Below, in pieces: positions 2,468 to 16,845 of a DNA stretch of 64,000 nucleotides; within the stretch, counting starts at the first letter, position 1; the number at the start of each line of letters is the position of its first letter. The stretch comes from a virus. Its lineage: Duplodnaviria > Caudoviricetes. Where the stretch lies: IMG/VR virus record IMGVR_UViG_3300021962_000022, one strand, 5' to 3'. The notes beneath the pieces were generated by a model. That model was not told the DNA's origin. It saw nothing but the letters and a program-made list of their open reading frames with translations, and searched no databases. A program made the translations under genes and the position numbers.

Positions 2468-2530
2468 TGATTTTGTTTGGCGTTCCGTAAAGTATTGATT
2501 TTATTAGGTTTCTATATGCCAAACAAATTT
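2468..2530. repeat. inverted motif pair with 36-bp spacer
   Basis: TTTGTTTGGC(2481)-N36-(2518)GCCAAACAAA with internal TAAAGTATTGATTTTATTAGG. Confidence 0.85.
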
Positions 2531-2640
2531 CCCTGGAGCGGCATCTGGGCGATTCCAGGTCTTTCTGCTAGTTTTACTGGTTTAACCAGCGCTGTTAGCT
2601 GGTCTTCTATAATTTGATTGGCGAAAAAGTATAAAAAAAT

Positions 2641-2671
2641 TTTGTTTATATTAGAATAGATACTATATTTG
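2641..2671 (+). promoter_or_regulatory. Bacteroidota-type promoter
   Basis: TTTG-N19-TATATTTG. Confidence 0.85.
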
Positions 2672-2696
2672 TATAAACCAATTAAAACAACACGTT

Positions 2697-3104
2697 ATGT
2701 ACGAATCAGTCAAAGAGTATTATCAGTTCTTAAATGAATTGAAAAAACAAAAGGAAGAGTTCCTTTTAAAAACAAAAGAAAGTGTTCTTCAACAAATGGA
2801 TGTTTTTATGTCCGAACATGGTTGGACACGAAAGAATGGGGGTAAAGATAGAAAATTTACTCAAAAAGTATTCTACACCAAAAAGTTCAATGGTAAAGAT
2901 ATCGTAATTGAGTATCGTTGTAACTACCAAGATGATTTTGTTGATGGTGGTTTACCCGAATTTTCACACGACAAGTCAATTCCCACTAGTATTGAAAAGT
3001 TGCAAATGGGTTACTTTCATTGGAACGACCACGATACAAGTGGTTGGAGTTTAGATGTGGTAATGGAACGGATGGAAGTCTTTTATGACAAGTACACCAA
3101 GTAA
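2697..3104 (+). CDS. hypothetical protein
   Basis: monocistronic ORF between a promoter and a terminator. Confidence 0.8.
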   Translation: MYESVKEYYQFLNELKKQKEEFLLKTKESVLQQMDVFMSEHGWTRKNGGKDRKFTQKVFYTKKFNGKDIVIEYRCNYQDDFVDGGLPEFSHDKSIPTSIEKLQMGYFHWNDHDTSGWSLDVVMERMEVFYDKYTK

Positions 3105-3108
3105 CTTG

Positions 3109-3138
3109 AAACCCTCACAGAAATGTGGGGGTTTTTTA
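3109..3138 (+). terminator. intrinsic terminator, repeated family
   Basis: AACCCTCACAGAAATGTGGGGGTTTTTT. Confidence 0.9.
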
Positions 3139-3204
3139 TTTACCACAGATGTTGGTGACCCCGGTTCAGGGTGGATTTAGGTTGGCAACAAAGTTTAAAA
3201 TAAA

Positions 3205-3236
3205 TTTGGATTATAAAAGTATTCGTATTATATTTG
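3205..3236 (+). promoter_or_regulatory. Bacteroidota-type promoter
   Basis: TTTG-N20-TATATTTG. Confidence 0.85.
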
Positions 3237-3256
3237 TATTATAAATCAACAAGGAC

Positions 3257-3475
3257 ATGATAAAATCAATTAATGAAAAACAGAGTGGGGTTGAGATTGA
3301 CCTCACAGGACCTGAAGGGAACGCGTTCGTTCTTATCGGGTACGCGGGTAAATGGGCGAAACAACTTGGATTGGACTCCAAAAAAATTCAGGAGGAGATG
3401 ATGAGTGGGGATTACGAGAATTTGATTGGCGTAATTGAAAAGTATTTCGGTGAATATGTAACTCTTTATCGTTAA
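3257..3475 (+). CDS. conserved phage hypothetical protein
   Basis: IDLTGPEGNAF...SGDYENL motif recalled from phage proteins. Confidence 0.8.
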   Translation: MIKSINEKQSGVEIDLTGPEGNAFVLIGYAGKWAKQLGLDSKKIQEEMMSGDYENLIGVIEKYFGEYVTLYR

Positions 3476-3479
3476 TCAT

Positions 3480-3683
3480 ATGGCGAAGAAAATTCAAATA
3501 TTGTCACCCGATGGGTTCACCCTTGAAAGGGATGTTCCCTACTACAAGTCGCACAGAGCTGCGGCGGAGGCATTCGCAAAATGGAAAAAAGGTTATGAAA
3601 CCCAAGGTTATTATTCTTCCGTAAAGTATGGACGAATTCACTTAAGTGACCTTGAAGATTATTGTCAACTTAATTATTTGTAA
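3480..3683 (+). CDS. hypothetical protein
   Basis: tightly packed ORF in operon. Confidence 0.75.
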   Translation: MAKKIQILSPDGFTLERDVPYYKSHRAAAEAFAKWKKGYETQGYYSSVKYGRIHLSDLEDYCQLNYL

Positions 3684-3688
3684 AAACC

Positions 3689-4009
3689 ATGAAAAACTAC
3701 AATCAACTCTGCGTATGGGAGGGAACTCTCGTAGGAAAAGACCAAGTAAAAGATTTCGAAAAATTCTTCAAAGAAGAAATGGGTACTCGAGTAAAGTACT
3801 TGGAAGAAATTGAAACACAACCAACACCTGGTGAACCTGATACAGGTGGACGTAACGATGTGTTCTTCTATGTACACAATGAGGACATTGATAAATTTGC
3901 AATACCTCGTTTGTCTATGGGTATTCGTTGGTGGGAGGATGTATTACGTAATGGTAATGGTGTTTTGTATACCGAAGATGTGTTGGAGAAATATCCGATG
4001 ACCTGGTAA
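3689..4009 (+). CDS. hypothetical protein
   Basis: tightly packed ORF in operon. Confidence 0.75.
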   Translation: MKNYNQLCVWEGTLVGKDQVKDFEKFFKEEMGTRVKYLEEIETQPTPGEPDTGGRNDVFFYVHNEDIDKFAIPRLSMGIRWWEDVLRNGNGVLYTEDVLEKYPMTW

Positions 4010-4038
4010 TCCCTCGAAATTGGTTGGCAAAAAACAAC

Positions 4039-4068
4039 TTGTAGAATAAAATAATAATTATACATTTG
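4039..4068 (+). promoter_or_regulatory. Bacteroidota-type promoter
   Basis: TTG-N19-TACATTTG. Confidence 0.75.
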
Positions 4069-4083
4069 TAAAAAACTAAACGT

Positions 4084-4335
4084 ATGACAAACCAAGAATT
4101 AACCACGTATTGGGTAAACCAATGTGAGAAAGTCCTAAAGGGACGTGTTATTAAATCAGTTCGTTATCTTACTGATGAGGAAATGGAACTTATGGGTTGG
4201 TACAAAAGACCTATTTGTTTTGAATTGGACAACGGAACACTTTGTATTCCTTCAATGGATGATGAGGGTAATGATGGTGGAAGTTTGTTCTATCAAGAAA
4301 AAGGTAAGGAACTTGATGTATTACCTGTAATCTAA
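4084..4335 (+). CDS. conserved phage hypothetical protein
   Basis: GRVIKSVRYLT...DDEGNDGGSLF motif. Confidence 0.8.
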   Translation: MTNQELTTYWVNQCEKVLKGRVIKSVRYLTDEEMELMGWYKRPICFELDNGTLCIPSMDDEGNDGGSLFYQEKGKELDVLPVI

Positions 4336-4378
4336 AAAACACTTGATAAGTTAAAAAAGAATGTGTAAGTTTTTGATA

Positions 4379-4448
4379 GATTACATTTCATAGTTGTAAT
4401 TTGTGTTTGGTTTGACACTTAAAGGGGTTCTACGGAATCCCTTTTTTT
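4379..4448 (+). ncRNA. candidate small RNA (about 70 nt)
   Basis: near-consensus promoter TTG(4343)-N20-TAAGTTT, no + strand ORF, own terminator at 4421-4448. Confidence 0.4.
4421..4448 (+). terminator. intrinsic terminator
   Basis: AAAGGGGTTC-TACG-GAATCCCTTTTTTT. Confidence 0.85.
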
Positions 4449-4536
4449 ATGTCTAAATCTTTAAAAATCAATCACTTATAATCCACCAGGCGGGACGACT
4501 GGACGATTTTGTTTGGCAAAAAACACTAGTATTTTA

Positions 4537-4660
4537 TTTGTATATTCTTAAAATCTTTATTATGTTTGTCATACATAAAGTCAAAGATGTATGTGGAAAA
4601 ACTTTTTTGAAAAAAACTTTAAAAAAAATTTGGAAAAAAAGAAAAACTATTATATCTTTG
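4537..4660 (+). promoter_or_regulatory. tandem Bacteroidota-type promoters of the ParB-like gene
   Basis: TTTG(4537)-N20-TATGTTTG and TTTG(4629)-N20-TATCTTTG. Confidence 0.8.
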
Positions 4661-4701
4661 TACCCGAAATTAAATCATTTAACTTTTAATTCAGAAACGA
4701 C

Positions 4702-5454
4702 ATGACAAAAAATGTTCAAGTAAAGTTCACCCAAAATTTGGGTATGTTCAAACTTCACAACGTAAATCGTGAGGTTGACACTCCACGCGTTAAGCGTATT
4801 ACCGACTCAATGAAGAAAGACGGATTAAAACTCGTCCCAATCATTGTTAACTCTAACTATGTTGTAGTTGACGGACAACACCGACTAACTGCAGCAAAAG
4901 AAGCGGGTAAAGGAATCTACTTTATTGTAGATGTTACTATCCCGAACACTACGAAAGGAATCTTTGAAGCCGCACGTAAGTTCAATCAGAACATGAAAGA
5001 GTGGGGTAAGAAAGATTACATTCACGGGTTCTCTGAACAAGGAAACAAATCCTACAAAACTTTGGAGGATTTTTCAAAAGAGTTCCCAATGTTCTCATTG
5101 ACTGAACGAATTATGTTACTTCAAAATTCGGGTACTCGTCATGTGGACAAACAAGATTTCGCCGATGGAAAGTTTATCGTGGGTGATATGGATAAGGCGA
5201 AAGAATGGGCGAACAACCTACTTCAACTCAAACCTTACTTTGAAAAGGGTTACAACAAATCAGTATTTGTTCGTACACTTCTTACCATTATGGAAAAGAA
5301 GACCGACTTCAAGTTTGAGGAGTTTCTTCACAAAGTAAAACTTCGTCCAAGTTCAATCTTTATGTGTGGTGATAAAAAATCATACGCGGAAATGATTGAG
5401 GACATTTACAACTATAAGCGTCGTACTGACGAAAAGTTGAATCTTCGTTTCTGA
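4702..5454 (+). CDS. ParB/Sulfiredoxin N-terminal domain protein
   Basis: PIIVN...VVDGQHRLTAA motif followed by a helical C-terminal region. Confidence 0.8.
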   Translation: MTKNVQVKFTQNLGMFKLHNVNREVDTPRVKRITDSMKKDGLKLVPIIVNSNYVVVDGQHRLTAAKEAGKGIYFIVDVTIPNTTKGIFEAARKFNQNMKEWGKKDYIHGFSEQGNKSYKTLEDFSKEFPMFSLTERIMLLQNSGTRHVDKQDFADGKFIVGDMDKAKEWANNLLQLKPYFEKGYNKSVFVRTLLTIMEKKTDFKFEEFLHKVKLRPSSIFMCGDKKSYAEMIEDIYNYKRRTDEKLNLRF

Positions 5455-5478
5455 CTTTAAGTTTTAGGGTTAGTAATT

Positions 5479-5508
5479 GGGGGTGACCGAAAGGTTATCC
5501 CCTTTTTT
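5479..5508 (+). terminator. intrinsic terminator
   Basis: GGGGGTGACC-GAAA-GGTTATCCCCTTTTTT. Confidence 0.9.
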
Positions 5509-5660
5509 ATGCGAAAAATTCACAAGATGTTCTCACCTGTCGACGGATTCTGGATGTTGTTTGGCGTAGTTTTCAACACACAAATGTTTGTAATCCAATA
5601 AAAAAGACACTTTTTGTTTAATGTTTGACTAAAAAAACCTGAACAAAATAAAAATATTTG

Positions 5661-5691
5661 TTGTTTTTAGAAAATATTCTTATTACCTTTG
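5661..5691 (+). promoter_or_regulatory. Bacteroidota-type promoter
   Basis: TTG-N20-TACCTTTG. Confidence 0.7.
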
Positions 5692-5714
5692 TACCATACT
5701 TCAAAAACTTGAAT

Positions 5715-6086
5715 ATGATAAAAAAACCAAGAAAGACTACGGCTAATTCTCTGAAGAAGTCTTTACACGAAATTCGTGAATGCCTTAATGAGAGTTTACC
5801 AAACTTTGAGAAGAAAGAAATGGTGGGAATTAAGTTCTCAAGAGTTGGTACTCGTTATCACATCGAAAATGCACCAGTTCCTCCTACCGATAAGATTGGT
5901 GTACAGCTTGAACGTTCTTTCAATGATTTTATGCGTAAGCTGAAAGTAAACTATGGTGGAATGAAGCTGGAAGGTTCAATGGTTATGGGAACTAAAGCTG
6001 ACATGTTTTTGGTTGGCTACAATAACTTTGAGCGTAAAGGTAAAAACCTCACCAAAAAGGGACATTCAATAGAAGGAGTTCTGTAA
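5715..6086 (+). CDS. basic hypothetical protein
   Basis: ATG at 5715 lies downstream of the promoter; the longer TTG start overlaps it. Confidence 0.75.
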   Translation: MIKKPRKTTANSLKKSLHEIRECLNESLPNFEKKEMVGIKFSRVGTRYHIENAPVPPTDKIGVQLERSFNDFMRKLKVNYGGMKLEGSMVMGTKADMFLVGYNNFERKGKNLTKKGHSIEGVL

Positions 6087-6116
6087 TTAGTATATTGATT
6101 TAATGTTCGGTTCAAG

Positions 6117-6147
6117 AAGCCCTCGCAGAAATGTGGGGGTTTTTTTA
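6117..6147 (+). terminator. intrinsic terminator, repeated family
   Basis: AAGCCCTCGCAGAAATGTGGGGGTTTTTTT. Confidence 0.85.
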
Positions 6148-6209
6148 TGCCTGAAGATTTCGAGTCACGGTTCAGGACGGATTTAGGTTGGCAACAAAGT
6201 AGAAAAAAG

Positions 6210-6241
6210 TTTGGTAAAAAGAAATAATTATTATATTTTTG
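6210..6241 (+). promoter_or_regulatory. Bacteroidota-type promoter
   Basis: TTTG-N20-TATTTTTG; about 60 bp nearly identical to the 9562 promoter region. Confidence 0.8.
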
Positions 6242-6265
6242 TATATGAATTTAAAAATGAAAGAC

Positions 6266-6700
6266 ATGAAAACAATATTTGCAAGTTTGTTGTTCACTTT
6301 AGTAACAACCACGTCAATGGCTCAAATGATGAAACCTGAGTATGATTGGAATAACTTTGATGAGAAATCTTATCAACTCCACAAAAAGGAATTGAATCAG
6401 TATTATGATTCTAAAAAAGAGGAAGTAATCAAAGAATATAGTTCTGGTTGGAGAACTATTGATTATACTGAATCTAAAAAAGTAGATTTGGAAATAATTG
6501 AAGTTGACAGAAAAGCGGATTTGGATGAATTGGAATTATATTACAAATTAGAAAACGAATCATCTTTCGAAAAAATGATTAGAAGTATTAAAGTATTTCG
6601 AAATTCAGTAACATTCAAATATGGTGTTCTACCGATTTCAATAGGATTTTTGTTAGGTATTCTACTCGTGGTTTTTCGAAAGACGACAAGTAAAATATAA
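6266..6700 (+). CDS. exported protein with C-terminal membrane anchor
   Basis: signal-peptide-like MKTIFASLLFTLVTTTSMAQ; C-terminal hydrophobic helix. Confidence 0.7.
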   Translation: MKTIFASLLFTLVTTTSMAQMMKPEYDWNNFDEKSYQLHKKELNQYYDSKKEEVIKEYSSGWRTIDYTESKKVDLEIIEVDRKADLDELELYYKLENESSFEKMIRSIKVFRNSVTFKYGVLPISIGFLLGILLVVFRKTTSKI

Positions 6701-6704
6701 TCAT

Positions 6705-6733
6705 AACCCTCACAGAAATGTGGGGGTTTTTTT
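6705..6733 (+). terminator. intrinsic terminator, repeated family
   Basis: AACCCTCACAGAAATGTGGGGGTTTTTTT. Confidence 0.9.
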
Positions 6734-6834
6734 ATGTCTGAAATTTTCAGGATACTGTTCAGGATGGATTTAGTTTGGCGTGGGCCAACCAATATCCAGA
6801 ATCCGTCGACAGGTGAAAAAAAAATAAAAATAAA

Positions 6835-6866
6835 TTTGGAATATAAAAATATTCGTTTTATATTTG
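6835..6866 (+). promoter_or_regulatory. Bacteroidota-type promoter
   Basis: TTTG-N20-TATATTTG. Confidence 0.85.
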
Positions 6867-6887
6867 TATTGTTAAACCAATACTATT

Positions 6888-7658
6888 ATGAAATATAGAA
6901 ACAAGACCCAAGCAAAAAGAGAAACGGGAATCAATTATTTAGGTTCTGTTAACATGACTACTAAACACGCTAAGGCGTATAAGTATGATGAATTAACCTA
7001 CAGTCTTTACCTCGCACCCGCAAAGTTGAGTGGTTATGAGGTTTGTCCTACGAGGAATAAAGAGTGTACCGCACTATGTTTAAACGAATCTGGTATGAAT
7101 CGTATGAACATGAATAATGACATGATTACTGAAAGTAGGATTAAAAAGACAAAATTGTTTTTTGAACAACGTCAGTATTTTATGGAATGGATGGTTGAAG
7201 AAATTATCACCGCAAAAAATAAGGCGGAAAAATTAGGTTTTCACTTCAGTGTTCGTTTAAATAACACTTCAGACATTACACCCGAATCCTTTCATATGGA
7301 TGTAAACGGCGAAAGAAAAAACATTTTACAATTGTTTCCCGATGTTACTTTTTATGATTACACCAAAGTACCGAAGAGAGTTGAACTTGTTAAAAAGTAT
7401 ACCAACTATGATTTGACATTTTCATTTAGTGGAGACAACTTCACCGATTGTGTAAACATGTTGAATGGTGGAGTAAGAGTTGCGGTTGTTTTCAAAAAAG
7501 AATTACCAAAAACATTTTGGGGTAGAAAGGTTATCGATGGTGACTTATATGATATGAGATATCGAGATGAGAAAGATGTTATTGTGGGGTTAAAGTATAA
7601 AGTCACACGAAAACGACCCGATAAAAATAGCAAGTTTGTAGTAGACCCCTCACAATGA
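6888..7658 (+). CDS. Gp88-like protein with Cys cluster
   Basis: LYLAP...VCP-x5-C-x3-CL...RLNNTSDI...FYDYTK...IDGD..D.R motifs (family name recalled). Confidence 0.6.
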   Translation: MKYRNKTQAKRETGINYLGSVNMTTKHAKAYKYDELTYSLYLAPAKLSGYEVCPTRNKECTALCLNESGMNRMNMNNDMITESRIKKTKLFFEQRQYFMEWMVEEIITAKNKAEKLGFHFSVRLNNTSDITPESFHMDVNGERKNILQLFPDVTFYDYTKVPKRVELVKKYTNYDLTFSFSGDNFTDCVNMLNGGVRVAVVFKKELPKTFWGRKVIDGDLYDMRYRDEKDVIVGLKYKVTRKRPDKNSKFVVDPSQ

Positions 7659-7669
7659 GGGGTTTTTTT
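7645..7669 (+). terminator. intrinsic terminator overlapping the stop codon
   Basis: ACCCCTCA-CAA-TGAGGGGT plus T-tract. Confidence 0.85.
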
Positions 7670-7711
7670 ATGCTTAAGCGCAGCTGTGCTGCTGGTTGCG
7701 CGCTGGCCCCT

Positions 7712-7773
7712 AATTTAGTTTGGCGTGAGTAAAGTGTTGATTTTATTAGGGTTGTGTAACGCCAAACAAAATC
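7712..7773. repeat. inverted motif pair with 36-bp spacer
   Basis: TTAGTTTGGC(7724)-N36-(7761)GCCAAACAAA with internal TAAAGTGTTGATTTTATTAGG. Confidence 0.85.
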
Positions 7774-7894
7774 GACCTGGAAGCTGCGCTGTTGCAGCTG
7801 GTGAGCAGCTGGTGAAAAACTAGCTATTTGCTCTGGTTACTGTCGTTCAGGGCTGGGATGGTAAAAATAGTTTGGCAACAAAGTTTAAAAAATA

Positions 7895-7926
7895 TTTGGA
7901 ATATAAAATTATTCATATTATATTTG
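7895..7926 (+). promoter_or_regulatory. Bacteroidota-type promoter
   Basis: TTTG-N20-TATATTTG. Confidence 0.85.
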
Positions 7927-7945
7927 TATCCTAAATCAATTAAAA

Positions 7946-8548
7946 ATGGGACAGTATTTTAAACCAATTATTCTCGGTGAAAAACCGAAAGACGGTGAAA
8001 ACGAAACCGTAAAGGCGTGGATGTATTCACATTCATATGACAATGGTCTCAAACTAATGGAACATTCCTATCAAGGAAACAACTTTGTTTCAACGTTTGA
8101 AAAAGAATTAACCCGAAGAGGGTCACATTACAAAAGTCGTGTAGTGTGGGGTGGTGATTACGCCGATGAAGAACCGGGGGTAAAAGTTATTAGTGAAGGG
8201 AAAGAGTACGACGCAAATTTGTATTCACTTTGTAATGATGAAAACGAAATCAAACCAAAGGTTGCAAAAACGGATGACTACCCTTTTATTGTAAATCACA
8301 CTAAAAAACAATTCGTAGATAAAAACAAAGTACCCGAAATTCAAGATTGGGAAGGTGTAAAAATTCACCCTTTACCACTTTTAACTAGTGAGGGTAACGG
8401 ACAAGGTGGTGGTGATTTTAGGGGAGAAGATGAAAATGAAATTATTGGTTCGTGGGCGAGGGATGTTATCTCAATAGAAAAGGAAAGTCCGTTAGTCATG
8501 ATTGGTACAACGGATTATACCGAATTAATTTTTGATTTGAAAGAGTAA
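7946..8548 (+). CDS. conserved phage hypothetical protein
   Basis: MGQYF...GLKLMEHSY...IHPLPLLT.EGNG.GGGDF motifs. Confidence 0.85.
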   Translation: MGQYFKPIILGEKPKDGENETVKAWMYSHSYDNGLKLMEHSYQGNNFVSTFEKELTRRGSHYKSRVVWGGDYADEEPGVKVISEGKEYDANLYSLCNDENEIKPKVAKTDDYPFIVNHTKKQFVDKNKVPEIQDWEGVKIHPLPLLTSEGNGQGGGDFRGEDENEIIGSWARDVISIEKESPLVMIGTTDYTELIFDLKE

Positions 8549-8551
8549 AAA

Positions 8552-8578
8552 AATTCCCCCGTGACAGGGGGATTTTTG
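8552..8578 (+). terminator. intrinsic terminator fused to the TTGGC motif
   Basis: AATTCCCCC-GTGACA-GGGGGATTTTT running directly into GTTTGGC. Confidence 0.75.
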
Positions 8579-8602
8579 TTTGGCAACAAAGTGTAAAATA
8601 AA

Positions 8603-8634
8603 TTTGGAATATAAAGATATTTGTTTTATATTTG
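8603..8634 (+). promoter_or_regulatory. Bacteroidota-type promoter
   Basis: TTTG-N20-TATATTTG. Confidence 0.85.
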
Positions 8635-8660
8635 TATCATAAACCAATTAAATAATCGAT

Positions 8661-9059
8661 ATGTCAAAAAGTATTAAAGTTCGTTTTAACCTCGGCAAGG
8701 GTAAAAACTACATGAAGTGGAAGGTAACACATCCTGATGGTGATGTTATCTACTATAGTCCTGATGAAGTACAAATGGTAATGACCGAGTGTACATTTAA
8801 AAACCACAAGAGTACCGCACAGAAAATTTTCGATGGTGCACACAAAACAGTTTGTGCGTGGATACTATGTAAGGACATTAAGATTTACACAGGTAAACCA
8901 ATCACGGATGAAAGTAGAAGGGTTCGTTATAATCCACGTGTCCAACCTAACTGGATATTCGATGGTCATATCATGGATAATGATGGGGTACCGAAATTAC
9001 ACACAATTGAAAGTGGCGTTTATATCACAGAAGGAAAAGGTGAAAATTGTTTGGCATAA
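8661..9059 (+). CDS. conserved phage hypothetical protein
   Basis: KVRFNLGKGKNYMKWKV...HKTVCAW motifs; follows a promoter. Confidence 0.8.
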   Translation: MSKSIKVRFNLGKGKNYMKWKVTHPDGDVIYYSPDEVQMVMTECTFKNHKSTAQKIFDGAHKTVCAWILCKDIKIYTGKPITDESRRVRYNPRVQPNWIFDGHIMDNDGVPKLHTIESGVYITEGKGENCLA

Positions 9060-9070
9060 AATAAAACAAC

Positions 9071-9553
9071 ATGGAACTCATCAAAGCACAACAACTCGCA
9101 GAGAAACTAATCCACAGACACGACCTTGATGTTAAAGGATGGAGATTTTCATTTGATAACGCAAGACGTAGGTTCGGATGTTGTAAGTACAGAAGTAAAC
9201 AAATTACTTTATCCAAAGTATTGACTTTACTAAACAATGAGAAAGAAGTAAAGAATACTATTCTACATGAAATTGCACACGCATTAACACCAGGTCATCA
9301 CCATGATTGGGTGTGGAGACAGAAAGCAATTGAAATAGGATGTAATGGAAGTCGTTGTTACAGTTCTAAAATAGTTGCAACCCCTGAACCAAGATATGTT
9401 GCGACCTGTGTGGGATGTGGTAAACAACATAGTAAGAACCGTTTGAGTAAATGGTCGTCATCATCATGTCGTCCGTGTTCGGGTGGCCGTTACAACGAGA
9501 AGTTCAAACTTGAGTTCAGGATAAATCCGAAATTTAGTTTGGCAACAAAGTAG
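9071..9553 (+). CDS. SprT-like zinc metalloprotease
   Basis: RRFGCC...ILHEIAHA...HHDWVW motif and a C-terminal CxxC..CxxC. Confidence 0.85.
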   Translation: MELIKAQQLAEKLIHRHDLDVKGWRFSFDNARRRFGCCKYRSKQITLSKVLTLLNNEKEVKNTILHEIAHALTPGHHHDWVWRQKAIEIGCNGSRCYSSKIVATPEPRYVATCVGCGKQHSKNRLSKWSSSSCRPCSGGRYNEKFKLEFRINPKFSLATK

Positions 9554-9561
9554 AAAAAAAG

Positions 9562-9593
9562 TTTGGTAAAAAGAAATAATCATTATATCTTTG
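9562..9593 (+). promoter_or_regulatory. Bacteroidota-type promoter
   Basis: TTTG-N20-TATCTTTG. Confidence 0.85.
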
Positions 9594-9615
9594 TATTACA
9601 ATTAAACCAATAGAC

Positions 9616-9927
9616 ATGAAAAAAGTAAAAGAACTTTATCGAAGTAAACTACATGGTCGAGATAAATCTCATGATGTGGTAATCATCCAAGACACTACAA
9701 GAGTAAGTGGATGTAAATTAAAAATGACCTACGAATGTTACAACGCGGTTGAACGATTTACAGGTGAACGACTTGTGGGTGGTAAGTGGGAGTTTAACTT
9801 CTCAATGGAAGATTTAGGGGTAACCCCTGATAGGAGTAACTACGTATGTGACAGTAGTAAACGTTTGGAAAGAACGGAGAACTTAATTCAAAAAGGTATC
9901 GAATTTTTTAACATTTTAAATCAATAA
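9616..9927 (+). CDS. hypothetical protein
   Basis: ORF after a promoter. Confidence 0.8.
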   Translation: MKKVKELYRSKLHGRDKSHDVVIIQDTTRVSGCKLKMTYECYNAVERFTGERLVGGKWEFNFSMEDLGVTPDRSNYVCDSSKRLERTENLIQKGIEFFNILNQ

Positions 9928-9931
9928 AATC

Positions 9932-10480
9932 ATGGGACTAGACATGTATCTCAGCAAGAAGACCTACGTTAAGAACTGGGACTTCCAAGACAAATCACAA
10001 CAGCACAAGGTGACTGTTAAAAAGGGTAGTAAGGTTCGCACCGACATCAAACCTGAACGTGTGTCATACATCACAGAGAGTGTGGCGTATTGGAGAAAAT
10101 CAAATCACATTCACCAATGGTTCGTAACGAATTGTCAAGGTGGTGAAGACCAATGTCAGGAGTCATATGTGGACAGAGGTCAACTTCAGGAGTTGGTCAA
10201 TATCTGTAAACAAGTGAAAGAGAGTTTGGAGAAATCAGGTAAGAAGACCGTGAAGATGGAAGTTGGTTGGCAGAACGGAGAAAAGATGTATGACGATGTT
10301 GAGGTGTTTGAGGATACCGAACTCGCAGAAGAATTACTTCCAACTCAACCCGGTTTCTTCTTCGGTGGAACGGAGTACGACCAATGGTATGTTCATGGTT
10401 TAGATGAAACCATCAATCAAATTGAACCACTTCTACAAGAAGAAGGGGATGGTGACTTCTACTATCAGTCATCCTGGTAA
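9932..10480 (+). CDS. conserved phage hypothetical protein
   Basis: MGLDMYL...YWRKSNHIH.WF...LLPT..GFFFG...YQSSW motifs. Confidence 0.85.
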   Translation: MGLDMYLSKKTYVKNWDFQDKSQQHKVTVKKGSKVRTDIKPERVSYITESVAYWRKSNHIHQWFVTNCQGGEDQCQESYVDRGQLQELVNICKQVKESLEKSGKKTVKMEVGWQNGEKMYDDVEVFEDTELAEELLPTQPGFFFGGTEYDQWYVHGLDETINQIEPLLQEEGDGDFYYQSSW

Positions 10481-10501
10481 AAAAAAATAACTGGGATATT
10501 A

Positions 10502-10533
10502 TTTGGTAAAATGATATCCCAGTTTTACCTTTG
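10502..10533 (+). promoter_or_regulatory. promoter straddled by an 11-bp inverted repeat
   Basis: TTTG-N20-TACCTTTG; AACTGGGATAT(10489)-N14-ATATCCCAGTT(10524). Confidence 0.75.
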
Positions 10534-10561
10534 TATAATGAAAGCTTAAAAAATTAGAGAT

Positions 10562-11173
10562 ATGCCAAACTGGTGTTCAAATAAAATAGAGATAACAGGT
10601 ACTAAAGAGCAAATAGCTCTACTTACCAAAGTTCTTGAGGATGTACCAAAATCCAAACCCCAAGAGTGTATCGTTTTTGAGTCCTTAATCGGTCGTGAGC
10701 CCGATATGTCAAAAGATGAATACGAACAAGGTGGATGGTACCAATCAAACATCGGTTGGTTTGGCACCAAGTGGGATGTATCCTACGACGATTGCAACTT
10801 TAACTTTGAGGATGAGTGTATTACAATGTATCCCGACACGGCGTGGTCACCACCAATAGGATTTGGTGCTAGGTTGCACGAGATGTATGGTGTGGATGTT
10901 GAGTTATATTACGAAGAACCTGGTTGTGATTTCTGCGGTAAAACTATTATTAAAAATAGAACCATAACAGAAAATGACTATGGTTATATGGAAGGTATCT
11001 ATCACTTCAATGATGAATACTTTTGGGAAGGATTATTGGACAATGAAATAGAGTACGCAAATGATGAGGGTATGAGTGTAGATGAGTTTGCGGAGAAGTT
11101 TAATTTCGTATCCGAAGATGACCTAAAAGAAATTAAAAAGATTTACGAAGAAAAATTAATTGAAAATAAATAA
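10562..11173 (+). CDS. YubB/DUF1281-like ferredoxin-fold protein
   Basis: MPNWCSN...WFGTKWD...TAWSPP...YEEPGCDFCG motifs. Confidence 0.75.
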   Translation: MPNWCSNKIEITGTKEQIALLTKVLEDVPKSKPQECIVFESLIGREPDMSKDEYEQGGWYQSNIGWFGTKWDVSYDDCNFNFEDECITMYPDTAWSPPIGFGARLHEMYGVDVELYYEEPGCDFCGKTIIKNRTITENDYGYMEGIYHFNDEYFWEGLLDNEIEYANDEGMSVDEFAEKFNFVSEDDLKEIKKIYEEKLIENK

Positions 11174-11175
11174 CG

Positions 11176-11436
11176 ATGGATAACTTAAAAGTAATGTCGA
11201 CAGCAGAACCTCAGGTACAATTAACCTATCAAGAATGGGTTGACGAATTGAGGATAAAAGAAAATGTAATTGTTTCATCCAAATACCACTCAAGAACAAT
11301 TGAGCAGCGTATACGGGTGGATGAAGCAATTCAACTAAAAAGAGAAATGGAAACCTCTGAAGAAAAAGTTTCCGACGGGACAGCTGAACCTCGGATTTTG
11401 TTTGGCATGTTAAGAACAGTAATAAACCTATTTTAA
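11176..11436 (+). CDS. hypothetical protein
   Basis: ORF in operon; contains a coding copy of the TTGGC motif. Confidence 0.6.
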   Translation: MDNLKVMSTAEPQVQLTYQEWVDELRIKENVIVSSKYHSRTIEQRIRVDEAIQLKREMETSEEKVSDGTAEPRILFGMLRTVINLF

Positions 11437-11439
11437 ATT

Positions 11440-11925
11440 ATGGGACGAGTAAATAAAACAATCGAAGGTGTCTTCATCGACATCGTAGGGTCCTCAAGTG
11501 AACTTAGTTCATATGACCAATTCATTAACCATGGAGGTGGTAAGAAATATTCCAAGGAGTTGGAAGAACTTACAGCCCTGTATAAGAAGGAGGTTACTAA
11601 GAGTAAAGTGATGTTCGAAAAACTTGCATCACTCGAGGAGATTATAATCCAAATGAGGATTCGTGAGGACCTTAGTGATATCAAGTTGACCCAAGTCCGT
11701 GAGTACATCTACGCAAGGACTCCATTCTACCGTAAGGATAAGAAGTCAAAAGATGTCCGTGTCATTGTCGACAAAATTGAATTCCATCCTGAGTCGGACG
11801 GTAACCTCGAGATTTTGCTTGGCAACAAGGACTTCATGGAGAAAGCAAAAAACAAGTTGGCCCAAGCAATGGACCTTGAGATTTTAGAGAATATCAAAAC
11901 ATTCAATTCATCATTTAAAAAGTAG
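11440..11925 (+). CDS. hypothetical coiled-coil protein
   Basis: ORF in operon; contains a coding copy of the TTGGC motif. Confidence 0.8.
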   Translation: MGRVNKTIEGVFIDIVGSSSELSSYDQFINHGGGKKYSKELEELTALYKKEVTKSKVMFEKLASLEEIIIQMRIREDLSDIKLTQVREYIYARTPFYRKDKKSKDVRVIVDKIEFHPESDGNLEILLGNKDFMEKAKNKLAQAMDLEILENIKTFNSSFKK

Positions 11926-11929
11926 AGTC

Positions 11930-12232
11930 ATGAAAAGAACAGAAGACATCAAAACAAACATTGGTTTATCAATCTTCAAAGGAGATTGGGACGGTGCAAC
12001 TTGGACCATCACTGGTTTCCCTAAAAAGGATGTGATTAGTCACGACTTTGATTCAGCATATGATTTCGAGGATTGTATTAAACGAAATGTTAATTGCAAC
12101 GGAATCGATTTCGACAGTGAGTATTGTCAGTTCTTTGCATACGCAAAAACCAAAGCACGTTTAGTGTCTTTTGCAAAACAGATTGAAAAACATTTCGAGA
12201 AAGCAAAGAAGGTGATGGAGGAGATGTACTGA
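11930..12232 (+). CDS. hypothetical protein
   Basis: ORF in operon; FDSEYCQF motif. Confidence 0.8.
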   Translation: MKRTEDIKTNIGLSIFKGDWDGATWTITGFPKKDVISHDFDSAYDFEDCIKRNVNCNGIDFDSEYCQFFAYAKTKARLVSFAKQIEKHFEKAKKVMEEMY

Positions 12233-12262
12233 TTTTGTCTGGCGAAAAATATCACAAAAAAA

Positions 12263-12294
12263 TTTGGAATATTCTAGAATTAGTATTAAGTTTG
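12263..12294 (+). promoter_or_regulatory. Bacteroidota-type promoter
   Basis: TTTG-N20-TAAGTTTG. Confidence 0.8.
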
Positions 12295-12313
12295 AATCAA
12301 GAACCAAAATATT

Positions 12314-12631
12314 ATGTCATATAAACAACAAGTACAGGATTTACAGAATGATATTATAAACAATATCAAACGATTCGTAGGTGAACTCGGTCAAGATGAA
12401 TTACATTTTAACGAGATGTTTAGAGTTTGGGTAACTATATCAACTTGGGACGATGATTATGTTCGTGTGTCATACGCGGCGGTCGGGTTACGGGGTGAGT
12501 TTGTTATCTGTACCAGTGAGGTTGAGGAAGAAGAAATTCAATTAGGGGAACTCGACATATATGAGTTGTCATACATTTTAGATTTACTAATATCAAATCA
12601 ATTTAAAACCGATAACAATGGACAAGATTAA
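12314..12631 (+). CDS. acidic hypothetical protein
   Basis: ORF after a promoter. Confidence 0.75.
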   Translation: MSYKQQVQDLQNDIINNIKRFVGELGQDELHFNEMFRVWVTISTWDDDYVRVSYAAVGLRGEFVICTSEVEEEEIQLGELDIYELSYILDLLISNQFKTDNNGQD

Positions 12632-13217
12632 ATTAAACAGTAAGGTCGTCGTATCCGACCCTTGTTACACAATCCCAACCTGGTGTCAAGCTGTAGTTGA
12701 CAAAGTAAAACCCGGTATGTATGACACCCACCTGAAGAAACACGACGCAGGTGATTGGGGTAAGAGATGTTCAATGTTACTTGTCATACACGAGGACCAT
12801 AAAGATGATATCCTAAGATGGGAGGAACATTCCGCAACCATCGGGGTCGATTCAGGTCAGTGTGGTATCTTCTCAAAAGAAACTTACCGTAACGATTCAA
12901 TCACCGAGAAAATTGGTTTGGGTGATGGGGACATTTCATTCTTTGGTGTTTCACCTTGGAAAGAAATGACTGATGGTCGTAAAGAGGAAGAAGGAGAAAT
13001 ATGGTATGTTAGTATGTGTTCTCGAACCTTAGGTGAAAAATCTTGGGGTGTGTATGACAGTGGAGTCGTATCCTCATCAGGTTTTGGTGACGGTTCATAC
13101 AGTTTATATGTCGCAAAGAAAAGAGGAAAGATTGTGGCAATGTGTGTGGACTTTCAAGTTGAAGAAGAAGGTGTAATCGATTTTGATTTTTTTCGCGATA
13201 TCCAACTAGAGAAGTAA
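12618..13217 (+). CDS. DUF4241-like protein
   Basis: VVSDPCY...GVDSGQCGIF...SSGFGDGSY motifs. Confidence 0.7.
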   Translation: MDKIKLNSKVVVSDPCYTIPTWCQAVVDKVKPGMYDTHLKKHDAGDWGKRCSMLLVIHEDHKDDILRWEEHSATIGVDSGQCGIFSKETYRNDSITEKIGLGDGDISFFGVSPWKEMTDGRKEEEGEIWYVSMCSRTLGEKSWGVYDSGVVSSSGFGDGSYSLYVAKKRGKIVAMCVDFQVEEEGVIDFDFFRDIQLEK

Positions 13218-13240
13218 TAAATTTTATTTAGATTTGAATC

Positions 13241-13522
13241 ATGAAAAAATTACTATTGATATTGCCAATTTTATTTGTGGTTGGGTGCAGAAGTACCTCA
13301 ACATACATCAAACACTCGGATGTAGCAATCGTATCGGGTGACATCCTTTATATATGCAATAAGGGACACGGTCCGATGATTTATAATTATTGGAAGAATG
13401 ATGTTTACTGTGACTCAACAATTAAGAGTGTTTATTTGTTGGACAGTATCCCATTTAATGCATTGTCCAAGAAATCCATACCATGTGGATGTAATCAAAG
13501 AGGGTATGCTAAATTAAAATAA
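13241..13522 (+). CDS. putative lipoprotein
   Basis: lipobox-like LFVVGC after a hydrophobic signal. Confidence 0.7.
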   Translation: MKKLLLILPILFVVGCRSTSTYIKHSDVAIVSGDILYICNKGHGPMIYNYWKNDVYCDSTIKSVYLLDSIPFNALSKKSIPCGCNQRGYAKLK

Positions 13523-13989
13523 TGACTATGTTCAATAAACAACACGCATCAAAACCGAATCATATCTTGAGTCCATCTCAGTGGATGAATTTTGGTTGGC
13601 TAACCATGGTACCTGTATCATATTTCGTCCACCCATATGCATGTGCACTGGCTGTGGTCATATACATCTACAAATATTTCGAAGTAGACTGTTGGAGGTA
13701 TGAATTCTATGATGACTGTGTTGTTGAACGTAAAGGAGTCTTCAGTGTGACTCGTGAATCGGTTCAGTACTTCAGGATTAAATCTGTAATGGTGGATGAA
13801 CCATTCTGGATGAGACTCCTCGGGTTATCAATTGTAAGAGTGATGACCTCAGAACAATTTAAACATGAATTAATATTTCAGGCCGTAGAAGAGGGTGAAG
13901 GAATTCAGGCATACTTACAACACAACGCAAGAGCAGAAAGATTGAATATGGGAATCAGGGATTTCGATGTATACAATACGCATCTGTAA
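13522..13989 (+). CDS. membrane protein with bacterial PH (bPH_2) domain
   Basis: two TM segments then YEF...ERKGVF...RIKSV....PFWMRLLGL. Confidence 0.75.
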   Translation: MTMFNKQHASKPNHILSPSQWMNFGWLTMVPVSYFVHPYACALAVVIYIYKYFEVDCWRYEFYDDCVVERKGVFSVTRESVQYFRIKSVMVDEPFWMRLLGLSIVRVMTSEQFKHELIFQAVEEGEGIQAYLQHNARAERLNMGIRDFDVYNTHL

Positions 13990-13993
13990 CGTT

Positions 13994-14314
13994 ATGAAAC
14001 TGTTCATCAGAGATAAGGTATACTTTACGGACCCTACTACAGGAGAGTTCTTTGAAGACACTATAACACATGTCGACGAACAGGTTATAATGGGAAGAGA
14101 CCGTGACTTGACATCGTTACACGAGAGAGGAGATTTAAATATCTATCGGATGCAATGTTACGTATGTGGATGTATAATCCCGAAACCATTATCACAGTTT
14201 CAGGTGGACGGTTTAAAGGGTAAACAACAATTGTTACCATCCACATGTAACGTCTGTCTAAGTGACCCGAGATATTATGAGGACCCTGAGGAGGGAATCA
14301 TACTGTTCATTTAG
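13994..14314 (+). CDS. hypothetical protein with C-terminal zinc finger
   Basis: CYVC...CNVC; ATG at 13994. Confidence 0.7.
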   Translation: MKLFIRDKVYFTDPTTGEFFEDTITHVDEQVIMGRDRDLTSLHERGDLNIYRMQCYVCGCIIPKPLSQFQVDGLKGKQQLLPSTCNVCLSDPRYYEDPEEGIILFI

Positions 14315-14460
14315 TTTGGCTAAGTCCGACGACAGGTGATACCGGAATTCCCGATTTAGTTTGGCCGAATCAGAATCGGTCGACGGGACCTGAGATGGTG
14401 GATTTAGTTTGGCGGGGGTTCAGATGACAGGTGACCCTGGAATCCCCGATTTAGTTTGGC
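14309..14460 (+). repeat. tandem array of four ATTTAGTTTGGC cores
   Basis: exact 12-mers at 14309, 14354, 14402 and 14449 (periods 45, 48, 47) with related GC-rich spacers. Confidence 0.9.
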
Positions 14461-14516
14461 ACAAGTTCTTTAAAATATTTTATACAGGATTTGGTTTTTA
14501 GGATTTTCTTGTTTAT

Positions 14517-14524
14517 TATTTATA
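14517..14524 (+). promoter_or_regulatory. putative late promoter TATTTATA
   Basis: 17 nt upstream of ATG 14542; the motif recurs before about 10 genes. Confidence 0.55.
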
Positions 14525-14541
14525 TACAAAATTATTATATT

Positions 14542-14814
14542 ATGGCAACAAAGAAGTCCACAACAAAAAAACCCGCTAGCAAACCCGCAGCGAAACCAGC
14601 ACCAGCCCCTAAGAAGGGTGGGTCTAAAAAAGCCGTAGCTACACCCGTGGCGAGAACAACTGTTAGTACTTATGTAGCAGTTTCTCACCACATCTACTAC
14701 GATGGTTTCTCTTACCGAGTTCGCGCTAGTGTTAACGGAACCCGTTACTCTCAGAACTTCTCTTCTAAGAAGAAAGCGTTCGCGTTCCGTAAGAGTATTT
14801 TGAGTACTATGTAA
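14542..14814 (+). CDS. small basic DNA-binding protein (histone-H1-like tail plus AP2-like domain)
   Basis: K/A/P-rich N-terminus, then IYYDGFSYRVRASVNGTRYSQNFSSKKKAFAFRK (three strands plus a helix pattern). Confidence 0.6.
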   Translation: MATKKSTTKKPASKPAAKPAPAPKKGGSKKAVATPVARTTVSTYVAVSHHIYYDGFSYRVRASVNGTRYSQNFSSKKKAFAFRKSILSTM

Positions 14815-14837
14815 TTTTACAAAAAATCTCTTAACTG

Positions 14838-14870
14838 AATCCTGTGATTAGTTTCACAGGATTTTTTTTT
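14838..14870 (+). terminator. intrinsic terminator
   Basis: AATCCTGTGA-TTAGTT-TCACAGGATT plus T-tract. Confidence 0.9.
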
Positions 14871-14930
14871 GTCCTGAAAGTTTTGTTTAAAAAAACAATG
14901 ACCGACGAATTTAGGTTGGCATTTTTTAGG

Positions 14931-14994
14931 TGTATGACACCGAACCCCGTGTATGACATATATACACATATATAAAACCATCCCTTGTATGACA
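14931..14994 (+). repeat. three direct TGTATGACA repeats in the strand-switch intergenic region
   Basis: exact copies at 14931, 14950 and 14986. Confidence 0.85.
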
Positions 14995-15220
14995 TCTAAA
15001 TGGTTTATATCTAATACTGTTTTTCTGAAAATATAAAAATATAACTCTTATTTCACGAAAGGGACAATCCTACACTATCTCCCACAATTTACCACTTTGA
15101 CACACTTTTGTCGATTGTAATACGACCAGCGGGATTTTTTGTAATACATCCATATATATTCTGAAAAAATTCCTTACGACAAAAAATGTCTGGATTAGGG
15201 GGTTAAAATCAAGGATTTTT

Positions 15221-15415: not shown

Positions 15416-15542
15416 ACACTAATAACAATTGTATTACAAAAAGGTTTAAACTGAGTGAGGTCTTTTCATCCTTACCATAGATTCCATTCTGTGGTTTTCT
15501 ACCAGCACCAAATGGTTCCAAAACTGTTTTATATATTTCATA

Positions 15543-15782
15543 TTACATTCCTTCCAATATTCTGTGTAAGATATTAATCAGTCCATTCAGATTACTCAAA
15601 TTGTTAATTACAAAATCAGAATGTTCATCTATGTAGACCAACCAATTATCATTCTCTATCAAATCACTCTCTGTAGATGTTAAAGATATATCTCCTATAT
15701 CCAATGTGTAATAATACCATTCATTATTATCACCATAGTATTTTGTGAAACCTAACTTAACGAGATTTTGTTCTGTAATCAT
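15543..15782 (-). CDS. hypothetical protein
   Basis: MITEQNLVKLGF start; co-oriented ORF. Confidence 0.7.
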   Translation of the reverse strand: MITEQNLVKLGFTKYYGDNNEWYYYTLDIGDISLTSTESDLIENDNWLVYIDEHSDFVINNLSNLNGLINILHRILEGM

Positions 15783-15822
15783 TTTGTCTTTTTCTCAAAT
15801 ATAAGATACAAATTTCTAATAC

Positions 15823-16167
15823 TCAATTATATTTTTTTTCACTATACGTTATTGGTTCTTCACAATGTGGACATTCATTTAGTTGAAGTAAATTATTCTT
15901 ATGGAAACTCCATTGTTCTACCATATGTTTTTCTTCTTCTTTTAATTTGGTATATCCATCTACATTATCTATTTTACCATATATGTCATAGTAGTTATTT
16001 CTATATTTGGTTATTATATGATTTTTACGTTGGGATATATATGGTTTACTCCCGCGGAATAGTTTAGATAACAATATATGGAATTTATAACACCCACCTT
16101 CTGTGTATATGTGACGAATATATAAATCCGTATTCCTTAACTCATCAATGAATGTTTCAATGTTCAT
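15823..16167 (-). CDS. conserved hypothetical protein
   Basis: YTEGGCYKF...HIITK...YYDIYG motifs, C-terminal CPHC. Confidence 0.75.
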   Translation of the reverse strand: MNIETFIDELRNTDLYIRHIYTEGGCYKFHILLSKLFRGSKPYISQRKNHIITKYRNNYYDIYGKIDNVDGYTKLKEEEKHMVEQWSFHKNNLLQLNECPHCEEPITYSEKKYN

Positions 16168-16181
16168 TGTATTATCCTAAT

Positions 16182-16460
16182 TTATTCTTCTACCCTGAAT
16201 TTTTCTTCAACACCCATATCTTTAAATGAATCTGGATTTACAAACTCATTCTCCAAATGTTCTATTGTTTCTCTCATGGCTTTCCCCTGATTTTTGGATG
16301 CTCTGATTGATAATGATAATGCACCACATAGAAAACTACGGATTTGTTCTATATCCAATATCCTTGAAACACCCTCTGAAGGTTGACCGATATCAATGTG
16401 GATTCTTTTGTCTTCTTTTATTGTTCCACTGATGATTATTTTAAATGTTTCGTTTTCCAT
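16182..16460 (-). CDS. hypothetical protein
   Basis: co-oriented ORF. Confidence 0.7.
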   Translation of the reverse strand: MENETFKIIISGTIKEDKRIHIDIGQPSEGVSRILDIEQIRSFLCGALSLSIRASKNQGKAMRETIEHLENEFVNPDSFKDMGVEEKFRVEE

Positions 16461-16485
16461 TTATCTATATAGTATTTTCTTATCT

Positions 16486-16740
16486 TCATTCGTAAACTTT
16501 ATCATATGCGGTATCCCACTCTTTATTGTAGGCATCCTTTTGTTCTTCCGTTAACTGGTCCAAGAGATTATTTTCAAACCACCTATTCATTACATAAGCA
16601 AATTTCAAATCTCTTAAGTAAGATTTACAGTAATCACCATCGGGATGTTGGTAACACACCATGGGTGAACAACAACCTTCCACACCACATGAATCACATA
16701 TGGAACAATAGGGTGAGTTATCTTTTGATTTGTCTGTCAT
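16486..16740 (-). CDS. Cys-rich hypothetical protein
   Basis: YCSICDSCGVEGCCSP motif. Confidence 0.7.
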   Translation of the reverse strand: MTDKSKDNSPYCSICDSCGVEGCCSPMVCYQHPDGDYCKSYLRDLKFAYVMNRWFENNLLDQLTEEQKDAYNKEWDTAYDKVYE

Positions 16741-16845
16741 CTTTGTAATATTGTTACCACGTGAGCACTACCCAACACAATTAATGTTAGATATAATGCA
16801 ACCAAAATAAATCTAATTATTGTCTTGAGTATTTCCATTTCTTAT

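Follow-up and report, generated by a model that had tools for sequence, protein, structure and literature searches.

In the 64,000 nucleotides that make up the window analysed here, taken from the IMG/VR virus record IMGVR_UViG_3300021962_000022 (Duplodnaviria; Caudoviricetes), a nine-letter word, TGTATGACA, is crowded into the first 15 kb. We find that it is the strictest form of an asymmetric word of 7-9 bp, (T/C)GTAT(G/T)AC(A), with the core GTAT[G/T]AC, and that this word is region-specific, non-random, conserved and selected. Judging from its distribution, it is probably a protein-recognition site that marks a block of early genes; the protein that reads it is not settled, and our tentative preference is for an orphan ParB-fold protein as the putative reader, one that would silence or insulate the early block on a regional scale. 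The source of the window is a member of a clade of jumbo phages of ~300 kb and Bacteroidota type, since its relatives in IMG/VR sit on contigs of 230-334 kb, the close ones with a ParB-like protein 92-95% identical to that of the window and the distant ones with a protein 42-44% identical. A megablast of window 4-16 kb against 50,697 deposited phages gave no match, and statements about whole genomes rest on three relatives: G001, a close one (288 kb, 92% complete), G003, whose ParB-like protein is 43% identical to the window's (310 kb, 93% complete), and G015 (310 kb, 100% complete, classed as having direct terminal repeats).

The first-pass annotation of this DNA had listed nine exact copies of TGTATGACA in either orientation, considered them far too many for chance and noticed none past 15 kb, all of which stands: 1.21 copies are expected in 64 kb (standard deviation 1.03), nine were reached in none of 100 dinucleotide-preserving shuffles, and no copy lies beyond 14,994. 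As had been noted, five copies are coding and three non-coding. The former comprise one at 10062..10070 (-) within gene 9932-10480, one at 12567..12575 (-) within gene 12314-12631, and three within a DUF4241-like gene at 12618-13217, of which those at 12718..12726 (+, codons M-Y-D-T) and 12782..12790 (-) are found in the close clade only, while that at 13051..13059 (+, codons V-Y-D-S) is exact also in L045 and L016 and has one mismatch elsewhere. The three non-coding copies (14931, 14950 and 14986, all +) follow position 14,814, and the ninth (4567, -) lies at a promoter. The flanks of the nine are unrelated to one another, and the copies are therefore independent and not parts of a longer repeat. 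One-mismatch matches to TGTATGACA taken together are at chance level; the variant TGTATTACA occurs six times in the window against 1.6 expected, always before 15.5 kb (1301+, 9592+, 10817+, 15140-, 15231+ and 15430+), and further GTAT[GT]AC cores lie at 1067+, 1597+, 3941+, 4082+, 4318+, 4796+, 10288+, 12469- and 15117-. Counted on both strands, the core is present 24 times in the first 16 kb; the 48 kb that follow have none, although Markov models of order 1-4 predict 12-14 copies there and the 6-mer sub-words occur near expectation. The word-free stretch, 15439..64000, thus lacks GTAT[GT]AC on either strand (~13 expected) and holds mostly minus-strand genes.

A uniform spread over the genome, which had been named beforehand as grounds for giving up the idea, is ruled out by the whole relatives, where TGTATGACA is confined to one region: all ten copies in G001 lie within 22 kb and all eight in G003 within 13 kb. 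Measured against region-wise third-order Markov expectations for the 7-mer core, the early block of G001 (24 kb) holds 41 cores vs 8.7 expected, the adjacent 73.5 kb none vs 21.1, the interval 1-136 kb 15 vs 62, and the interval 234-288 kb 9 vs 15.8; the adjacent word-free block is stricter than the remaining genome, which the reading favoured here does not explain. An unbiased scan of all 8192 strand-symmetric 7-mers in G001 identifies GTATTAC as the most depleted 7-mer outside the block (14 vs 71 expected, P about 1e-16), while within the block GTATTAC and GTATGAC are third and fifth by enrichment, only two words of a TTTGGC motif ranking higher. The block of G003 is adjoined by 68 kb without sites. 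The block of G015, at 232-261 kb out of 310, carries 44 sites over 29.5 kb, after which the next 90 kb have 7, a 4-fold depletion. Every sampled lineage of the jumbo clade, down to a ParB-like identity of 39%, is enriched, with 20-45 cores in ~20 kb, or 4 in the case of one 11-kb locus, and the pattern is kept in relatives whose ParB-like protein is only 42-44% identical. In small phages with a ParB-like homologue at most 39% identical motif enrichment is absent, and Flavobacterium phage lillamy9-1 (ParB-like protein 34% identical) has no copy. Confinement of sites to one chromosomal domain beyond chance, the hallmark of domain-marking words of the Noc/NBS (Noc-binding site) and MatP/matS type, is therefore found in G001 and seen again in G003 and G015. 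As a separate observation, G015 carries a second, moderate enrichment of GTATKAC at 89900-118000, with ~20 copies in 28 kb, mostly on one strand.

The first place of GTATTAC among avoided 7-mers could mean that a nuclease or defence-type system, of host or phage, targets the word, with the block acting as a decoy or titration sink or being processed there, an explanation that we consider unlikely. Where phage genomes avoid a word most strongly, the cause is usually restriction, and Type III and Type IIG enzymes typically recognise asymmetric words of 5-7 bp; the strand bias of the word recalls the escape of T7 from EcoP15I. ParB/Srx domains of the DGQHR type also occur in restriction-like proteins; there is a weak GmrSD_N match, and SspE is among the fold matches. 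Failed purging, however, is not expected to yield a 4.7-fold enrichment in the block over deep divergence, and this enrichment argues against simple restriction avoidance; sites in both orientations would leave the block cleavable, and the phased pairs and promoter overlap described next favour a binding protein over a nuclease target.

Because the positions of coding sites differ between lineages, they turn over while their density is kept: in the DUF4241-like gene other lineages place sites at other codons. One site in that gene coincides with a conserved G-V-Y-D motif. Spacings of 17-23 bp between neighbouring sites are in threefold excess (14 vs 4.3 expected), and relatives contain pairs such as TGTATGACA-N9-11-TGTATTACA between inverted TTTGGC elements. 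Early gene groups are each preceded by a repeated cassette consisting of a terminator hairpin, a ATTTnGTTTGGC element and a Bacteroidota-type (host-type) promoter of the form TTTG-N19-21-TAnnTTTG; relative to 147 host-type promoters, sites concentrate on the -7 box, in the spacer and at -100 to -160, and are scarce from -40 to -90 and downstream. The window sites at 4567 and 9592 each overlap a -7 box by two bases. The former had been placed at the promoter upstream of the ParB-like gene, and its overlap, one of 2 nt, is confirmed: the promoter, host-type TTTG-N20-TATGTTTG at 4537-4568, lies ~130 nt upstream of that gene, and the copy at 4567..4575 (-) begins within the final 2 nt of the -7 box and extends over the start region, a position that is the same in the close relatives L003 and L009. 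Dispersed operator sites both near to and far from promoters, as known for KorB, are accordingly present, on -7 boxes and spacers, at -100 to -160 and within genes, and 7 of 15 copies of TGTATKACA fall outside genes though 79% of the block is coding (P = 0.02). The sense strand of early genes carries 60-85% of block sites in all lineages. An RNA-level target, such as an RNase site, was rejected, as the neighbouring block is empty on both strands, which argues against it, and a quarter of the block sites are antisense.

The TTTGGC elements belong to a companion motif, ATTTnG(T/G)TTGGC, which supplies the two most enriched 7-mers of the G001 block (GCCAAAC, 31 vs 2.7; GCCAACC, 19 vs 2.3) and is found at window 250-14920, L003:1040-1330, L014:5120-5400 and L016:6540-6950. 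Relatives carry it as inverted pairs 36 bp apart around a TGTATGACA/TGTATTACA pair; the equivalent 36-bp spacers of the window (2468-2530) carry a different core.

The placement of sites on promoters and codons also bears on whether the word has any dedicated function, or merely arises where repeated promoter cassettes contain TTTGTAT... and where proteins conserve peptide motifs, GVYD for example. Early promoters do end in TTTGTAT, some GTATTAC copies are part of a -7 box (GTATTACnTTTG), and the one coding site on G-V-Y-D fits such an origin, but exact TGTATGACA copies are not preceded by TT and share no flanks, most coding sites are off conserved residues and turning over, and neither the rank-1 depletion outside the block nor the non-tandem arrays in unrelated phages, which a reversed-word control does not produce, would be explained. 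We regard a by-product as very improbable.

The highest site density coincides with a convergent gene boundary in the window, G001 and G003. Earlier described as a non-coding strand-switch zone with three copies of the word, the zone at 14.8-15.2 kb is indeed non-coding and holds the three copies, but it is convergent and not a divergent promoter region: plus-strand genes stop at 14,814 and minus-strand genes at 15,221. This non-coding interval (14815..15220) is the site of the densest cluster, with six copies of TGTATKACA and one further core in 14.93-15.44 kb, among them the three direct copies of TGTATGACA (14931..14994, +), which are spaced 19 and 36 bp apart and flank an alternating AT-rich stretch. 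The boundary further holds a hairpin and ~250 nt of conserved non-coding DNA, and a strong terminator (14837-14864) follows gene 14542-14814. The conserved element (~15020-15230) is shared by L248, L251, L254 and L261, down to 43% ParB identity, and includes an invariant ACGACAAAAAATGTCTGGAT and ATTGTAATACG(A/C)CCAGC. Rfam gave no match in the convergent zone and folding of the element is no better than that of shuffles (z about 0), so that an RNA gene was dropped as an explanation and the element is probably DNA-level (a promoter, boundary or origin).

A triple cluster around AT-rich DNA invites the interpretation that 14931-15000 is a replication origin with the word as its iteron, the dispersed copies being secondary or auxiliary. 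The 16-nt AT-rich TATATACACATATATA with its three direct copies would suit an origin, as would a maximum of cumulative GC skew near 14 kb, the retention of the AT-rich stretch, hairpin and conserved non-coding DNA in four lineages, and the TGTATGACA arrays that other phages have in non-coding DNA next to replication or recombination genes. The skew switch, however, is fully accounted for by the change of gene orientation, the first two sites of the trio are missing in L251/L254 and G003, no initiator gene adjoins the cluster, and more than 40 sites dispersed over 24 kb with purging elsewhere are unlike iterons. The scatter of the sites and their purging elsewhere speak against both a plain origin and a plain operator, and an origin seems to us decidedly unlikely. 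Taken together, enrichment inside the block, rank-1 avoidance outside it, conservation with turnover, phased pairs, promoter overlap and the boundary cluster point to a selected DNA-level recognition word, one by which a domain of the chromosome is set off.

Only two block proteins are predicted to have a DNA-binding fold, those of 4702-5454 and 14542-14814; Pfam gave no DNA-binding domain in 20 further proteins of the early block or neighbouring genes, and NCBIfam nothing for five block proteins. The first of the two (4702..5454, +; 250 aa) is one of a family with at least 300 members of ~250 aa and combines an N-terminal ParB/Srx domain with DGQHR and a helical domain with a putative helix-turn-helix (HTH). 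Its ParB-like identity, proposed from sequence, is borne out by an AlphaFold2 model (predicted local distance difference test, pLDDT, 90): the N-terminal domain has the ParB-family fold and aligns with CTP/CDP-bound ParB, KorB and Noc at Z 10-11.6 and a root-mean-square deviation (rmsd) of 1.9-2.3 A over ~90 residues, with lower scores for sulfiredoxin and SbnI (Z 7-8). Alignments to ParB-parS, Noc-NBS and Spo0J reach residue ~200, which takes in the DNA-binding domain, but loosely (rmsd 4.7-11 A). An HTH-like segment spans residues 116-142, with T134, E135 and N142 conserved, and a T-E...M signature in the putative recognition helix is present in motif-positive lineages and lost in motif-negative homologues, though it also tracks phylogeny. 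Box II reads DGQHRLTA where GERRxRA is typical, so that GxxRxxA is kept and the other two arginines are H and T.

A ParB-fold protein with clustered sites would fit a canonical ParABS-type system for partition or positioning, in which the sites act as centromeres for segregating or anchoring the phage genome, yet this is the least supported of the readings and we think it highly improbable. The genes are those of a lytic jumbo phage, and no ParA-type ATPase (PF13614, PF01656) was found in G001, G003 or G015 by profiles that both matched in 14 of 14 control genomes. Given this and the incomplete arginine patch, the parS-like site of the first-pass annotation, whose suggested part in positioning or protecting the incoming genome is a hypothesis, is not upheld as a partition site, and neither is a palindromic parS of ~16 bp, as the word is asymmetric and 7-9 bp long, only its ends TGT/ACA are symmetric, and its flanks are not conserved. 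Since no ParA was found, we take the 4702-5454 protein to be of an orphan regulator type and not part of a partition system.

The second protein (14542..14814, +) is small and basic, with a Lys/Pro/Ala-rich tail and a putative C-terminal domain of the AP2 or integrase arm-binding type. It is a serious rival that suits the role of reader equally well, though we hold it possible, if doubtful, that it is the reader: a monomeric beta-sheet domain of this fold would recognise one asymmetric 7-9 bp site, the basic tail would add non-specific affinity, and the protein would coat or bound the block, nucleating at the dense cluster by its own gene. That gene ends 117 bp before the triple cluster, and the protein is kept in 8 of 10 clade records at 43-73% identity, beating the ParB-like protein in most shared records. 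Its model, four strands and a helix with pLDDT about 90, best matches the AP2 domain of SIP2 (Z 5.1), ERF1 (Z 4.4, 2.0 A over 45 residues), the arm domain of the HPI integrase (Z 4.0) and Tn916 Int (Z 3.5). Arm-type sites are asymmetric, ~9-10 bp long, and closely spaced, their copies being either direct or inverted. This grammar agrees with that of the sites found here. The arm-type sites of lambda, P4/HPI and Tn916 (PDB 3jtz, 3rmp, 1bb8) are likewise read by a monomeric three-strand-and-helix domain, but 14542-14814 lacks a recombinase domain, no att site accompanies it, and its fold scores are weak: AP2 and arm-binding domains lead both structure searches, but at Z no higher than 5.1 and a Foldseek E of at least 0.28, and Pfam and NCBIfam gave no match for the protein. 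Four copies of ATTTAGTTTGGC directly upstream of its gene could be its true target. The tail (window 14542-14660) is long only in the window and L263 and is 10-25 residues in other lineages, and is therefore not a conserved family feature; the gene is missing from G005, a distant relative (96 kb, 47% complete); and a simple operator protein would leave the genome-wide purging unexplained.

Any account of the reader must also consider the same 9-mer in other elements. A scan of IMG/VR for phased TGTATGACA pairs returned 87 loci against 34 for the reversed word, and only the real word gave non-tandem arrays with conservation limited to the 9-mer. The arrays of complete genomes are single loci, of which the reversed word gives none: eight of the nine copies of G007 within 0.6 kb, with an XRE-type gene alongside, seven within 0.4 kb in G008, and six in G006 (L071:4424-4635) within an open reading frame (ORF) that precedes the large terminase. 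As an aside, the six copies of G006 and of L096:303-502 form two triplets ~100-124 bp apart, an arrangement that resembles a pac site within a small-terminase gene. A ribbon-helix-helix gene adjoins the array at G008:5767-6368, L032:3188-3573, L058:5912-6497 and L067:1274-1544, and G005 has 40 copies (consensus GTTTTGTATGACAATAGAAA) over 25 kb of homologous block. The NikR operator is GTATGA-N16-TCATAC, and a ribbon-helix-helix domain can thus read GTATGA (PMC7055735). The arrays of G008, L032, L058, L067 and G005, in which the 9-mer is phased at 10-22 bp beside ribbon-helix-helix genes, are like those of omega, ParR/parC and NikR; unlike the omega and ParR/parC arrangements, the window's sites are dispersed and not a single array. 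No ribbon-helix-helix gene was found in the window, G001, G003 or G015 (PF01402, a custom hidden Markov model, a regular expression and the G005 protein as query), so that the clade's reader must differ or be very divergent, which weakens the case for a single binder. A binder common to all array phages was also dismissed after an all-against-all BLAST, which gave only the large terminase and a PD-(D/E)xK nuclease, and the proteins that G005 shares with the clade (DUF932, HNH, RNA ligase, kinase and phosphatase) include no obvious site-specific binder. Among the matches listed, contigs of bacterial and archaeal metagenome-assembled genomes carry arrays phased at 10-11 bp (L323, L335, L340, L292), and the number of matches in a contig-wide TGTATGACA scan, again among those listed, is about that of chance. 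Copies in 18-bp tandem repeats (L018, L046, L048, L052, L083) are hexapeptide coding repeats in long ORFs and were discarded as irrelevant, and a full-text literature search for the sequence matched primers only. The word may be a widespread ribbon-helix-helix operator or centromere word, and its arrays beside such genes in many unrelated mobile elements are a separate lead.

We return to the orphan ParB-fold protein, which we infer to bind the word and, by doing so, to silence or insulate the block. The word would label one chromosomal domain, the ~24-kb early block under host-type promoters of a jumbo phage of ~300 kb; the protein, made within the block, would bind to or be loaded on the many scattered sites and exert its effect over the region, in the manner of KorB or Noc and not of a partition ParB; and the effect would be a shut-off of early transcription, insulation, or some other marking of the domain, at whose distal boundary the strongest cluster sits. 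The data are best matched by a protein whose action reaches beyond its site, for its spreading or sliding would make stray sites costly and the word would be purged elsewhere. In 13 of 14 lineages a core site flanks the ParB-like gene (within 150 bp upstream or 110 bp downstream), against 41% of 322 other block genes (P about 9e-5), a test that treats lineages as independent when they are not and in which the gene may simply adjoin a cassette boundary. Several further points weigh against this reading. Two of the three box-II arginines are lost in the protein, the site is short and asymmetric, unlike the palindromic parS, OB and NBS, and a symmetric clamp does not account for a sense-strand bias of 70-80%. 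The co-occurrence of the ParB-like protein and the motif may be shared ancestry, and the AP2-like protein co-occurs with the motif equally well. G005 has its 40 copies but neither gene in its 96 kb, and the end of its block (36400-36930) carries a ribbon-helix-helix protein with a Lys/Ala tail; complete unrelated phages, too, have TGTATGACA arrays without this ParB family.

The precedent among known systems is KorB of plasmid RK2, a sliding clamp of the ParB family that depends on CTP and, from dispersed OB sites, silences promoters some distance away (PMC11790492). The ParB fold, a large number of scattered sites, promoter-proximal as well as remote, and a role that is more regulatory than segregational are common to both, but OB is a 13-bp palindrome where the phage word has 7-9 bp and is asymmetric, KorB is partnered by a ParA, IncC, where no ParA was found in the clade, and by the clamp-locking KorA and TrbA, and the phage protein differs in its incomplete arginine patch and in having more than 40 sites within one 24-kb domain of a 300-kb lytic phage. 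NBS sites are absent from the chromosome terminus, matS sites are found in the terminus only, and parS is origin-proximal. In these systems, as here, the information lies in where the word is and is not, and Noc, which is among the fold matches of 4702-5454, is itself a ParB paralogue without ParA; their sites, however, are palindromes on cellular chromosomes that serve division or segregation, while the phage domain is a temporal gene class. Among phages, P1 ParB uses asymmetric box A heptamers, and N15 has SopB centromere sites at four scattered positions, which influence gene expression as well. Both proteins are phage-borne and of the ParB type, that of P1 with asymmetric heptamers and that of N15 with sites spread among regulatory regions, but they belong to plasmid prophages with a ParA/SopA partner, and nothing here suggests plasmid prophage behaviour. 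The MotA boxes of T4 are class-specific promoter words, and the first-step-transfer region of T5 is rich in repeats. The phage block resembles these in tying a short word or repeats to one gene class and, at ~8% of the genome, resembles the first-transferred segment of T5; it differs in that sites occur in both orientations and within genes, with no fixed promoter position, and nothing places the block at a genome end.

The early-gene block (1..14814, +) is made up of small genes from 352 to 14,814 and extends to the left of the window in relatives, and the minus-strand genes run from 60,147 down to 15,221 and include those for a helicase, thymidylate synthase, a methyltransferase and glycosyltransferases. 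No integrase or plasmid-replication functions turned up among the scanned proteins; a T7-like RNA polymerase (PF00940) was not matched either, a weak negative since the family's control search also matched nowhere. Two observations stand apart. The thymidylate-synthase homologue (54116-55414, -; 432 aa) matches a PHROG profile of 335 positions stretched over its full length, and a large insertion is therefore implied. Around site 12567, 49 nt (window 12542-12600) are identical in L014:15614-15672, where the ParB-like protein is only 43% identical, which suggests a recent exchange of gene 12314-12631 between distant lineages and hence a mosaic early block.

When a word ranks near the top for enrichment in the early block, is avoided elsewhere more than any other and keeps this pattern over deep divergence, a strong position-dependent function is usually behind it. 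How Bacteroidota jumbo phages hand over from early transcription by the host RNA polymerase to later programmes is largely unknown, and two small candidate proteins and one defined site offer a testable handle on early shut-off or on the marking of a chromosome domain. If the ParB-fold protein reads the word, lytic phages would join plasmids and chromosomes as settings for silencing by ParB-CTPases. The fullest version of this picture, to which we give about the same modest credence as to an AP2-type reader, is that of a lytic jumbo phage with an orphan KorB/Noc-like ParB and more than 40 asymmetric loading sites in its early domain, the word being purged from the other ~260 kb, which switches off, insulates or sets apart the block; if true, it would be the first case of a viral chromosome under temporal control of the ParB type across an entire domain.

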